Below are positions 34,729 through 37,205 of a stretch of DNA of 64,000 nucleotides, piece after piece. A program made the position numbers and the translations under genes. Every line of letters starts with the position of its first letter. The stretch's first letter is position 1. Source of the stretch: Myxococcales bacterium (GTDB taxonomy: Bacteria > Myxococcota_A > Bradymonadia > UBA7976 > UBA1532); NCBI GenBank assembly GCA_020633465.1, contig JACKDN010000004.1, positions 307,828-371,827 on the forward strand, written 5' to 3'. Below the pieces are notes generated by a model. The model made no database searches, had not been told where the DNA came from, and saw only the letters and a program-made list of their open reading frames with translations.

Positions 34729-36936
34729 CTACTGCAGCTCGACCTCGAAGCCCGCGCTCAGGACGAACCAGCCGCGCTGCACCACCGGCGACGAGGGGAA
34801 GGTGGGCTTCACGCCGATGTGCTCGATGCTGGGGGCCAGCTCGGCGAAGGCGTCGACGCCGATCTCGATGGGATCGATCGCCAGCTCGAGGCCGTTGCCG
34901 ATCTGCTCGCGCACCTGGGGCCAGGCCAGCGCGGGGATGAGGCGCTCGATCAGCTCGGGGGGCACCACCGGGCGGGCGCCGGCCTGCTCGAGCAGGGCGA
35001 CGCGCACGTCGGGCTCGTCGGCGATGTCGAAGCGAATGCCGCCGTCGCCCACCTCGAGGATCAGGCCGGCGCGCAGGCTGAGCACGAAGCGATCGGGGGC
35101 GTCGCCGGCGGGGCCTTTCGCGTACAGGTCCAGCTCGCCCACCTGCAGCTCGAAGAAGTAGGGGCTGCCCGGCGGCGCGGCGACCACCAGGGGCGGCACG
35201 CGCGCGTCGGCGCGGGCCTCCGCGATGAGGCCGGCGACGTCGTCGGGCAGCACCGGGGCCAGGTCCAGCTTCAGCGCGCCCTGGCGCCACACCTCGTGCA
35301 GGAGCGCGTTGACGGTGGCCAGGTTCACCGCCAGCGCCAAGCCGGTCTGCGCCGGCCAGGGGGGCGTCGCGGCGGCGTCCTCGACGGGCACGCCAGCGAA
35401 GGGGTGCGGCGCCTCGACGGGACCGCGCTGGCGGACGGCGCCGGCGAGGCCCAGCCACACGGCGTCGCGGGCGCGCGCGGTGGGATCGCTGAGGGTGAAG
35501 TCGAGGTCCAGCGCGATGGTGGGGAGGCCGTCGCCCAGGGGCACGTCCAGCGGGATGCCGCGCAGGACGCCGAGGGCGTCGCCCAGGCCCAGCTCGATGA
35601 AGTCGGGCACGCTCTCGCTGATCAGATCGTCCACCAGATCGCTGGCGAAGGACTGCAGCACCGTGCGCAGCAGGCTGCCGAAGGTGTCCAGCACGGCCTG
35701 CGCGGTGCTGTCGTCCATCACGCCGTCGAGATCCTCGAGGGCGACCCCGACGTCGACGATGCGCAGGCCGGGGAAGCCGTCGGGGCCGGGCTCGACGCCG
35801 ACGACCACGAAGGCCGCGGCGGTCACCATCACCTGCCCGTTCAGGCCCACCGGCACGCCCTCGATCTCGAGGCTGCCCGTGGTGGTGAGGGTGAGATCCT
35901 CGAGGCGCAGGAAGACCTCGAAGCCGCCGTCGGTGACGGTGATCGTCGCGTCGGGCGTACCCGGCGTGATCGACTCGACCGTCAGCTGCAGCGTGTCGTC
36001 GTCCGCGATGACGGGATCGCCGATGAGGCCCAGCGGCTCGGCGCGCGCCAGGAAGCCCTCGATGAGCATCGCCAGGTCGGTCAGCCGCTGCACGCCCATC
36101 TCGTCGGGCGGCGGCAGGGGCTGGCGGCTGTCGAGCAGGCGCTGGTCGAGGCGCACGGCCAGGGCGCCGGGCACCTCGACCGCGGTGGGCGTCGGCTCGA
36201 GCAGCGTCGGCGCGTAGACCACCTCCATCACCACGCGCGTGGGCGGGCGGCGCACGCCGTCGTCGGCGATGGCGTCGATGCGGTTCAGGCCGAAGGTGGC
36301 GTCGATGGCGTGGCTGAAGGTGCCGTCCTCGGCGACCTCGACCGGGCGGTCGTTGATGAACACCGCGACCTCGCCGCCGCCGTCGGTGCGGCCCTCGACG
36401 GTGATCGTCGGCTCGCCGGTGATCAGCGCGCCGCGGCTGGGCGACGTGATCTCGAGGTCGGCGCGGCCGTCGTCGACGAAGAAGCTGGCGCGGCCGCACA
36501 GGTTGGCGCGGTAGCAGGCGCGCACGGCGCCCTGCCCTTCGGCGGCGAAGCTGAGGACGCCGTCCGGCGTCACCGCGCCCTGCTCGGCGGGCTGCACGTC
36601 CAGCCGCACCTCCACGCCGTCGAGCGGGCGGCCGATGCGGTCGTACACCTGCACCACCACCTGCGGTGTCTCGTCGAGCATGTACAGCGCGCGGCGCGGG
36701 TCGAGGGCGACCTCGATGTAGGCGGGCTCGGGCCCCGGCGCGGCGTCCGCGCGCGGCGGCGCGGCGTCGGGTCGATCGCCCGGCCCCATGTCGCCGTCGC
36801 CGCCGCCCGGCCCGACGTCCGCCCCCGGGCCGACGTCGGCGCCGCCGCCGTTCGGATCGCCCGACCCCTTGCTGCTGTCGTCGCACCCGAACGCGAACAG
36901 CAGCGCGGCGAGGGTGAGCAGGTGCTTGCGCTTCAT
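34729..36936 (-). CDS. Large lipoprotein of unknown function (paralog 1 of a tandem pair)
   Basis: MKRKHLLTLAALLFAFGC is a lipoprotein signal. GAGGG lies 5 nt upstream of the ATG. An acidic Gly/Asp-rich linker follows, then a ~650-aa region with architecture similar to the 37196-39985 product. Confidence 0.65.
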   Translation of the reverse strand: MKRKHLLTLAALLFAFGCDDSSKGSGDPNGGGADVGPGADVGPGGGDGDMGPGDRPDAAPPRADAAPGPEPAYIEVALDPRRALYMLDETPQVVVQVYDRIGRPLDGVEVRLDVQPAEQGAVTPDGVLSFAAEGQGAVRACYRANLCGRASFFVDDGRADLEITSPSRGALITGEPTITVEGRTDGGGEVAVFINDRPVEVAEDGTFSHAIDATFGLNRIDAIADDGVRRPPTRVVMEVVYAPTLLEPTPTAVEVPGALAVRLDQRLLDSRQPLPPPDEMGVQRLTDLAMLIEGFLARAEPLGLIGDPVIADDDTLQLTVESITPGTPDATITVTDGGFEVFLRLEDLTLTTTGSLEIEGVPVGLNGQVMVTAAAFVVVGVEPGPDGFPGLRIVDVGVALEDLDGVMDDSTAQAVLDTFGSLLRTVLQSFASDLVDDLISESVPDFIELGLGDALGVLRGIPLDVPLGDGLPTIALDLDFTLSDPTARARDAVWLGLAGAVRQRGPVEAPHPFAGVPVEDAAATPPWPAQTGLALAVNLATVNALLHEVWRQGALKLDLAPVLPDDVAGLIAEARADARVPPLVVAAPPGSPYFFELQVGELDLYAKGPAGDAPDRFVLSLRAGLILEVGDGGIRFDIADEPDVRVALLEQAGARPVVPPELIERLIPALAWPQVREQIGNGLELAIDPIEIGVDAFAELAPSIEHIGVKPTFPSSPVVQRGWFVLSAGFEVELQ

Positions 36937-36954
36937 GGCCGCCCTCACTGTCCG
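36934..36954. repeat. 21-bp direct repeat, copy 1 (contains the ribosome-binding site and start codon of the lipoprotein gene)
   Basis: The plus strand is catggccgccctcactgtccg. On the minus strand it reads cggacagtgagggcggccATG. The identical copy is at 37185-37205. Confidence 0.7.
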
Positions 36955-37002
36955 GCCGAGCCGGAGACGCCCCGGAGAACGCCGTCCTCCACCCAGGAGG
37001 AC

Positions 37003-37026
37003 GTGCCCGTGCCCGTGCCCGTGCCC
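37003..37026. repeat. (GTGCCC)4 hexanucleotide tract; inverted partner of the tract at 37123-37154
   Basis: The plus strand is gtgcccgtgcccgtgcccgtgccc. Read on the minus strand in frame with the downstream lipoprotein gene it encodes HGHGHGHGH. Confidence 0.7.
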
Positions 37027-37088
37027 GTGGCCGAACTCACCCACCGGCGCGTGCCGACCCATAACGCTTTGATCACACGTACTTTTCA

Positions 37089-37187
37089 TCATCGGCCGGC
37101 TCTGCTTGGCGCGTGGCCAATCGGGCACGGGCACGTGCACGGGCACGGGCACGGATCGAGCGCCGCGGGGGTCCAACTTCGTTGCAT
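37089..37187 (-). CDS. Small ORF (32 aa) encoding a Cys-Pro repeat peptide; possibly a leader or upstream ORF
   Basis: The minus strand encodes MQRSWTPAALDPCPCPCTCPCPIGHAPSRAGR. It starts in 21-bp repeat copy 2 immediately after the upstream gene's stop. Its TGA overlaps an ATGATG in frame with the downstream lipoprotein gene. Confidence 0.25.
   Translation of the reverse strand: MQRSWTPAALDPCPCPCTCPCPIGHAPSRAGR
37123..37154. repeat. (GGGCAC)2-GTGCAC-(GGGCAC)2 tract; inverted partner of (GTGCCC)4
   Basis: The plus strand is gggcacgggcacgtgcacgggcacgggcacgg. On the minus strand it encodes PCPCPCTCPCP. With the tract at 37003-37026 it can form a GC-only stem of about 24-27 bp around a ~96-nt AT-richer spacer. 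Confidence 0.7.
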
Positions 37188-37205
37188 GGCCGCCCTCACT
37201 GTCCG
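37185..37205. repeat. 21-bp direct repeat, copy 2
   Basis: catggccgccctcactgtccg spans the stop codon of the 37196-39985 gene and the ATG of the Cys-Pro small ORF. Confidence 0.7.

Follow-up and report, generated by a model that had tools for sequence, protein, structure and literature searches.

The junction between two adjacent lipoprotein genes of a Myxococcales bacterium (assembly GCA_020633465.1, contig JACKDN010000004.1) raises the question of why a ribosome-binding site and its start codon should be present twice, on either side of a long inverted repeat of hexanucleotides and a very short open reading frame (ORF). The stretch of DNA that was analysed, hereafter the window, covers 64 kb of this contig, and the coordinates of the junction features are all read on its minus strand. 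An initial annotation, made from the letters of the window, offered three readings: a hairpin or attenuator with a regulatory role, linking translation of one gene to that of the other; a hexanucleotide contingency locus; or a small non-autonomous element responsible for the second copy of the start region. Comparison with orthologous loci and with a dispersed class of similar hairpins supports the last of these. The junction most probably represents a recent, lineage-specific insertion of a 230-bp non-coding foldback element into the 8-nucleotide (nt) stop/start junction of two co-directional lipoprotein genes.

The upstream gene (37196..39985, minus strand) encodes 929 amino acids (aa), beginning MRIRGLLLFAVALGAAAC and ending in GNFGQ, and the downstream gene (34729..36936, minus strand) encodes 735 aa, beginning MKRKHLLTLAALLFAFGCDD. 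Between them, the 21-nt direct repeat CGGACAGTGAGGGCGGCCATG that the initial annotation had described is indeed present in two copies, with a start-to-start spacing of 251 nt rather than 250. The left copy (37185..37205) contains the last codons of the upstream gene and its TGA stop (37198-37196), together with the ribosome-binding site GAGGG and the ATG from which a mini-ORF now begins; it is from the right copy (36934..36954) that the downstream gene takes its native ribosome-binding site and its ATG (36936-36934). No further match to this sequence is found in the 64 kb even when 3 mismatches are allowed (0.02 expected by chance). In the output of a repeat finder, the two copies are 26 nt long and 92% identical.

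The evidence that carries the insertion comes from relatives in which the junction is empty. When the downstream lipoprotein was used as a protein query, 57 homologs were obtained, almost all of them within 714-756 aa; the best of these, encoded at a locus termed L001, shares 95% identity with the query and has the same length of 735 aa. The upstream gene of L001, which encodes 928 aa, has its last base at 5416 and the downstream one its first at 5425, so that the junction, GGGAACTTCGGACAGTGAGGGCGGCCATGAAGCGAAG (...GGGAACTTCGGACAGTGAGGGCGGCCATGAAGCG...), has a single copy of the 21-mer and a stop-to-ATG gap of 8 nt. BLASTN aligns L001 to the window with 94.4% and 92.8% identity over the two genes, and a single segment of L001, 5407-5435, matches both window 37205-37177 and window 36954-36926. 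The same 8-nt junction is found on eight contigs of a 68% relative (L002-L009) and in L130; the gap is 2 nt in L010, and stop and start overlap by 1 nt in L131 and L132. The hairpin, the mini-ORF and the extension of the downstream frame described below are absent from L001 and from six other lineages. The conservation in relatives that the initial annotation had proposed to look for is thus not found at any orthologous locus compared, and the result speaks against its suggestion of a regulatory hairpin or attenuator coupling the paralogs. As the site is empty in the relatives, and the 21-mer single in L001, the window carries a lineage-specific insertion of 251 bp. This gain consists of the 230-bp insert (36955..37184), missing from every orthologous locus examined, together with a duplicated target of 21 nt when only the perfect repeat is counted.

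Judged against L001, the duplicated target continues imperfectly for 8 nt (37177..37184, CAACGAAG in the window and AAGCGAAG in L001), bringing it to 29 nt with 2 mismatches. The left boundary is sharp, while the extra 8 nt on the right are closer to the start of the L001 gene (CGAAG) than to the window's own. Parsimony over seven lineages places the insertion in the lineage of the window after its split from L001, at about 6% nucleotide divergence. The same junction is also occupied in a 52% ortholog from a Myxococcota metagenome-assembled genome (MAG; L133, JACKDO010000037), where it measures 170 nt. Here, a 160-bp palindromic element (L133:2583-2742) that is unrelated to the window insert, and whose 26-nt terminal inverted repeats (CAGCCGTGATCGAGTCTATTGAGCCC) are 92% complementary, begins right after the TGA stop and finishes 10 nt before the ATG. 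At least two different small palindromic elements, this one and the window insert, have thus entered the stop/start gap of the gene pair.

Two candidate reading frames run through the insert, both of which had been annotated initially and are confirmed by translation. The mini-ORF (37089..37187) starts at the duplicated ATG and runs for 32 codons and a stop, MQRSWTPAALDPCPCPCTCPCPIGHAPSRAGR, crossing the 5' arm of the hairpin (as PCPCPCTCPCP) and terminating in the loop. The extension (36937..37092) is a 52-codon stop-free stretch that leads from an ATGATG into the lipoprotein ORF (...EFGHGHGHGHGHVLL...); this ATGATG, at 37092, shares the letters ATGA with the stop of the mini-ORF, and the frame that it opens is that of the MKRK start of the lipoprotein and encodes GHGHGHGHGH. 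However, frames of this length are unremarkable in the window: random frames drawn from it are free of stops in 77% of cases at 32 codons and in 68% at 52 codons, and 74% of all its ATGs open a run of 32 or more sense codons. GTGCCC and GGGCAC are, moreover, stop-free in all six frames. Since 68-77% of random frames are open by chance, the open frames of the mini-ORF and of the extension carry no evidential weight. The conserved start of the downstream lipoprotein is, on the evidence of the alignment, the MKRK ATG, as M1 and an invariant Cys-Asp-Asp lipobox align across seven lineages, and the 52-codon extension has no counterpart among orthologs. This conserved start puts the His-Gly and Cys-Pro peptides outside the conserved protein, and the MKRK ATG is the start from which to annotate the downstream gene. 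The mini-ORF would then be a by-product of the target duplication, and mini-ORF, His-Gly extension and duplicated start are better regarded as scars of insertion than as parts of a designed regulator.

The hairpin itself is built from tandem hexamers. The 5' arm (37121..37154) consists of GTGCCC, GTGCCC, GTGCAC, GTGCCC and GTGCCC followed by GA, and the 3' arm (37002..37034) of GGCCAC and (GGGCAC)4, with four G3 tracts that could fit a G3N3 quadruplex-type motif. Tandem Repeats Finder reports them as period-6 arrays at 37122-37154 (5.5 copies) and 37002-37033 (5.3 copies), which pair as a 33-nt inverted repeat that is 94% complementary. The inverted tracts of the initial annotation are therefore real, although its unit counts, (GTGCCC)4 and (GGGCAC)5, were approximate: each arm has four perfect hexamers and one variant, GTGCAC on one arm and GGCCAC on the other. 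The spacer (37035..37120), 86 nt long, is AT-richer, as had been stated, at 64-66% GC against 72-82% in the flanks; it can pair with itself in part, and nothing in the collections searched matches it. The stem of about 25 bp given initially was too short, as pairing enters the spacer in both RNA and DNA folds to give a foldback of ~150 nt. Folding of 36925-37215 as RNA gives -162.2 kcal/mol (z = -4.7), and folding of 36995-37160 as DNA gives -58.7 kcal/mol (z = -6.3).

Window matches to an 18-mer of (GTGCCC)3 with up to 2 mismatches are confined to the insert (6 overlapping matches, 0.07 expected), and no second strong inverted repeat of comparable type was found elsewhere in the 64 kb. The inverted repeat of the insert is internal (37002-37154), with 32 nt and 47 nt of non-palindromic sequence flanking the hairpin. 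Directly after the 3' arm lies a small hairpin, GTCCTCC-TGGGT-GGAGGAC (36984..37002), and the right flank of the insert also contains an 11-nt tandem repeat in two copies, GGCGTTCTCCG and GGGCGTCTCCGG (36961..36983). Scans of the window region found no promoter-like or terminator-like site, and none of the Rfam 15 covariance models gave a match below E = 1 there.

Hairpins with the same arms are widely dispersed. They were sought with the pattern GTGCCCGTGCCC N80-110 GGGCACGGGCAC over one genome per species in GTDB r232, a collection of 185,579 genomes; the counts are lower bounds, and the figures for the class refer to the matches listed. At least 118 stretches in at least 58 assemblies contain such a hairpin. 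The listed matches come from Myxococcota (Sandaracinaceae, Polyangiaceae, Kofleriaceae, Nannocystaceae and others), Planctomycetota (including Gemmataceae and Kuenenia), many Chlamydiota, Verrucomicrobiota, Lentisphaerae and Acidobacteriota, Legionella (including one isolate genome), and single MAGs of Rhodomicrobiaceae and Solirubrobacterales. Some genomes hold many copies, for instance at least 10 in Sandaracinaceae HK-STAS-MYXO-23 and at least 12 in Parachlamydiaceae MGR_bin429. The same hexamer arms span genomes from 40% GC (chlamydiae) to 73% GC (myxobacteria). At loci in low-GC genomes, all 40 of 40 hairpins are intergenic, none being in a long ORF, and they occur in all contexts of gene orientation. 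As a separate observation, a (GGGCAC)n array in one high-GC locus (L033:2936-2965) lies inside a putative 329-aa ORF in which it would encode a Gly-Thr low-complexity stretch; if that ORF is real, not all arrays of GGGCAC are arms of non-coding hairpins.

Within the class, the arms have 2-18 units (mode 5) with an inner boundary that is typically GTGCCC|GA(T), and the spacers have a median of 85 nt. Spacers are far less uniform than arms: 58 of 119 are singletons, spacer families are mostly confined to one genome or to close relatives, and one Chlamydiae MAG has identical arms at three loci with unrelated spacers. Variant units are mirrored across the arms (GTGAGC/GCTCAC, GTGTGC/GCACAC, GTAAAC/GTTTAC), such that non-consensus positions of the stem are complementary in 456 cases and not so in 102. 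This mirroring means that the constrained property is the hairpin, or a palindromic process of copying. In 865 kb of class loci, the GTGCCC unit accounts for 153 of ~176 perfect hexamer arrays and for all 62 of 62 inverted array pairs, so that a general tendency toward hexamer hairpins is not the explanation. With 5 units per arm, inner boundaries of GATTGG and GAACTC, and an 86-nt spacer, the window hairpin falls within the range of the class. (GTGCCC)2 is found neither in the rest of the window nor in ~154 kb of loci of relatives. An Rfam search of 18 class loci found tRNAs alone, and no match to the arm pattern was obtained in viral contigs.

In other genomes, members of the class occur in several arrangements. 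In Sandaracinaceae HK-STAS-MYXO-23, the hairpin is at the centre of a ~230-bp unit that has TA at either end, is bounded by 13-nt terminal inverted repeats (TAGCAGGCTGCTG), and also contains several small stem-loops with GAAA- and TTCG-type loops. This unit, found at L011, L018, L024, L044, L047, L060, L065, L070, L075 and L094, has the outline of a conventional miniature inverted-repeat transposable element (MITE), and its hexamer number varies among copies, from 3 to 5 or more. Its left end often follows apparent coding sequence, and its TAG may serve as the stop codon of the upstream gene. In Parachlamydiaceae, the hairpin is nested in a larger palindromic shell, GTCCTTTTCC...GGAAAAGGAC and then GAGACAATTGCAAAAGTCC...GGACTTATGCAATCGTCTC. 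In one genome of this family, MGR_bin429, the arms and spacer of L103 are inverted relative to those of L121, L079 and L040 within the same outer flank, GGAAGAGCAGCAGCTAGG, which means that the segment was either flipped or inserted in both orientations. Half-elements are also reiterated in tandem with flanking DNA (L118:137-1110, L048:588-703 and L124:830-1495), the reiterated unit being an outer flank, the spacer and one GGGCAC arm; in L118, a Chlamydiae MAG, there are ~10 units of ~108 nt, and in L048 and L124 2 copies each. Outside the hexamer core of another locus (L045:5900-6140), a palindrome with 80-nt arms contains single CGTGCCCG octamers spaced by a 20-nt repeat, in a pattern that is mirrored exactly on both arms.

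Among known systems, the closest resemblance is to dimers of repetitive extragenic palindromic (REP) sequences, including REPINs and BIMEs. REP units are short palindromes with a GTAG or CGTC tag, and their dimers consist of inverted units 20-100 nt apart with conserved or variable spacers, can be nested in 'target palindromes', and form clusters that are reiterated with flanking DNA; the short tag is kept across phyla that include the PVC group, and the roles proposed for REPs and BIMEs include mRNA stabilisation and termination (Di Nocera et al., PMC3733652). The hexamer-arm hairpins are similar in that inverted units and a spacer fold into one intergenic hairpin that can be multi-copy, and in showing the same mixture of conserved and variable spacers, nesting in palindromes, tandem reiteration and a short sequence shared between phyla. 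They differ in that the arms are tandem arrays that are not self-complementary and have no GTAG or CGTC tag. In addition, REP dimers are mobilised by RAYT tyrosine transposases, and no RAYT gene was found near the hexamer hairpins: this Y1 HUH transposase is neither among the proteins that recur in the 8-kb flanks of the 118 listed loci nor among the window genes checked. We know of no report of REPINs making target duplications, whereas the window copy has one of 21-29 nt.

Bacterial MITEs such as Correia/NEMIS, ERIC and RUP provide a second comparison, as the window insert is likewise small (below the criterion of ~500 bp), non-coding, hairpin-forming, intergenic and flanked by a target duplication, and as the Sandaracinaceae unit has the terminal inverted repeats and TA ends of such elements. 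In contrast to MITEs, the window insert lacks terminal inverted repeats, its duplication is far above their usual 2-10 nt, and to our knowledge the hexamer-arm elements have no parent insertion sequence. Eukaryotic Foldback elements (Drosophila FB, Galileo) resemble the hexamer hairpins in architecture alone, being kilobase-scale elements that use P-superfamily or MULE transposases and make duplications of 7-9 bp. Rickettsia palindromic elements are also dispersed palindromes (~100-150 nt) that are stop-free and tolerate translation, but these are in frame within genes, unlike the intergenic hairpins of the low-GC loci and the element of the window, which lies between genes. With respect to the duplication, longer ones are made by casposases (~14-15 bp), by Cas1-Cas2 (a repeat of 28-37 bp) and by the IS1634/IS1549 group, a range into which 21-29 nt falls; however, no gene of these systems is among the window genes checked, there is no repeat array, and other members of the hexamer class are without long duplications. 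The arm 12-mers retrieved two unrelated biomedical papers alone, and no description of a hexamer-arm class was found in the searchable literature, where keyword matches were general REP/REPIN papers and eukaryotic MITE and foldback papers; the class may have been described already under another name.

On these grounds the window insert would be dispersed DNA of a REP-dimer or MITE-like kind, mobilised in trans. A number of observations weigh against an inserted mobile element of this sort. The duplication is an outlier, as the longest flanking direct repeat is at most 13 nt at the 109 hairpin loci tested, and it lies well outside the target duplications of 2-14 nt that are typical of DDE transposases. 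The 230-bp insert has no terminal inverted repeats, an alignment of its ends scoring below the shuffled mean. No second copy of the insert, by spacer or by flanks, exists in the window or in the 118 listed loci; a 22-mer of the spacer has no match in JGI metagenomes, and a pattern from the right flank gave one chance match inside a coding region of the same collection and no true second copy. The window hairpin is assigned to the class by its arms, which appear to be common to the class but are also the search pattern itself, while its spacer and flanks match 0 of the 118 listed loci. No transposase or recombinase was found among the genes checked within ~14 kb of the insert, which include an SF1 helicase, a kinase, SPFH, vWA, Crp-like, LysR and Tpt1 genes and a MoxR-like ATPase. 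Nor does any transposase or recombinase recur in the 8-kb flanks of the 118 listed loci, where the recurring proteins belong to common families, for example Ser/Thr kinases and ABC transporters.

Because the insert has no terminal inverted repeats and has non-palindromic flanks, a route without a transposase is a serious alternative for the integration step. A replication fork could have stalled at, or switched to, a hairpin locus, copied ~230 nt, and re-entered 21-29 nt back; or a staggered double-strand break could have been filled in and a stray hairpin fragment end-joined into it. Flanks of 32 nt and 47 nt, as from a copied locus, a long duplication with one sharp and one fuzzy boundary, and the lack of long flanking repeats at other members of the class would all suit such an event, and the tandem half-elements of L118, L048 and L124 show that these hairpins provoke errors of replication or recombination. 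Yet microhomology at the junctions is not evident, and related units with terminal repeats of their own are clearly mobile in other genomes; taken jointly, the two versions are a possible but unlikely origin of the insert. An artefact of assembly, in which a spurious loop was joined at a shared 21-mer, is suggested by the exact length of the repeat, since k = 21 is a common assembler setting. The duplication runs on imperfectly to 29 nt, however, a foreign fragment would have needed the identical 21-mer at both ends, and the architecture matches that of multi-copy elements in many independent assemblies, one of them an isolate genome, which together leave an artefact with very little probability.

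The remaining alternatives ascribe a function to the hairpin or its repeats. That the hairpin and mini-ORF evolved as a cis-regulatory device by which expression of the two paralogs is coupled or tuned, be it an attenuator or a translational relay, would fit the high stability of the RNA structure, the overlap of stop and start signals at either end of the mini-ORF (TGA...ATG in the repeat and the ATGA at 37092-37089), and the perfect preservation of a ribosome-binding site and ATG in a copy that no gene needs. This preservation amounts to 0 changes in 11 sites against 2 in 8, which are too few sites to show selection. With the structure missing from L001, in spite of its 95% identity, and from every other lineage, arms generic to a dispersed repeat class, open frames expected by chance, and neither an Rfam match nor a terminator-like or promoter-like site in the window region, a device of this kind is improbable; an intrinsic terminator or attenuator, marked by a U tract after a GC-rich stem or by alternative leader structures conserved with the gene, differs from the locus, which has no terminator-like site and whose structure is absent from all orthologous loci. 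By analogy with inverted repeats that share one invertase, the arms could instead be recombination sites between which the 86-nt spacer flips, as conserved arms with varying spacers and the opposite orientation of L103 relative to L121, L079 and L040 in the Parachlamydiaceae genome might suggest. General recombination can invert any long inverted repeat, though, and the spacer has no promoter-like site and no recombinase gene nearby among the genes checked, making an invertible switch a decidedly improbable reading. Hexamer number does vary, from 3 to 5 or more in one family and from 2 to 18 across the class, and the units are open in every frame, as would suit a contingency locus that alters the number of His-Gly or Cys-Pro dipeptides in a protein. 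The tracts of the window, unlike those of simple-sequence contingency loci, lie outside the conserved ORF, however, and the class is intergenic in 40 of 40 low-GC loci; this suggestion of the initial annotation thus fails at the MKRK start, and is highly doubtful.

If the junction did acquire a foldback element by insertion, as favoured here, its present arrangement follows from the site of entry. The element would have landed in the stop/start junction, by means of cuts or a polymerase re-entry staggered by 21-29 nt, and duplicated a target that contains the upstream stop, the ribosome-binding site and the ATG. The left copy would keep terminating the upstream gene while its ribosome-binding site and ATG now face the element, creating the mini-ORF, and the right copy would still supply the start signals of the downstream gene. 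The His-Gly extension would be no more than stop-free, GC-rich hexamers read into the lipoprotein ORF. Stop/start junctions that are 8 nt long or overlapping imply co-transcription and translational coupling, and the gene pair of the relatives is probably translationally coupled. Ribosomes that finish the upstream gene of the window would start again on the mini-ORF and terminate in the loop of the hairpin. Translation of the downstream gene would then have to begin at the duplicated ribosome-binding site of that gene, which lies beyond a hairpin of very high stability. Direct coupling would thereby be replaced by an mRNA hairpin of ~150 nt, most likely a neutral or mildly modulating barrier.

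MITEs that are co-transcribed with neighbouring genes can alter the fate of the mRNA. A secondary effect of the insert on expression is possible, whether by broken coupling, by an mRNA barrier or by a processing site, and the hairpin possibly protects the 3' end of the upstream message, as has been proposed for REP and BIME elements (PMC3733652), or lowers read-through into the downstream gene, or both. The net effect is most likely neutral to mildly negative for the downstream gene.

A palindromic element between genes is ordinary; less ordinary are the conserved tandem-hexamer arm, the lack of a record found in Rfam or the literature, and the long target duplication. A bolder proposition, which we put forward only tentatively and consider rather doubtful, is that the hairpins constitute an undescribed superfamily of foldback DNA in Chlamydiota, Planctomycetota, Verrucomicrobiota, Myxococcota, Legionellales and Acidobacteriota, in which the arms are essentially invariant while loops and outer shells turn over. 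If so, a conserved trans-acting enzyme or a structure-specific host process would be implied, which might recognise the hairpin or the arm of G3N3 quadruplex type, and the long duplication of the window would be a first clue to the chemistry of integration, namely a wide stagger or hairpin-induced template switching. If the family is genuine, the locus also offers a dated pair of filled and empty sites for the study of integration, raises the question of the machinery that recognises a tandem-hexamer stem, and matters for the annotation of GC-rich genomes, in which such inserts create long spurious extensions of ORFs.

As to the surroundings of the junction, both flanking genes encode products with a signal peptide and a cysteine, which marks them as lipoproteins, and the upstream product has a weak Pfam signal for Glucodextran_B / Ig-like domains. 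The two are paralogs, as initially annotated, but distant and old ones (25% identity over 549 residues, E = 1e-16), and this low identity rules out a recent gene duplication as the origin of the 21-nt repeat. The gene just downstream of the pair (ORF 32982-34574, minus strand) has no Pfam match, and contains at 33335-33892 a repeat with a 9-nt period, GCGCCGCCC, in ~62 copies with nested periods of 18, 36 and 45 nt. Elsewhere, at 2322-2708, the window has a tandem repeat with a period of 174 nt (2.2 copies, 77% identity). Synteny with L001 ends at ~40032, where a GMC oxidoreductase gene follows in L001; past this break, on the opposite strand of the window (40324-48273, plus strand), is a gene for a 2649-aa protein with CarboxypepD_reg and Big_13 repeats.

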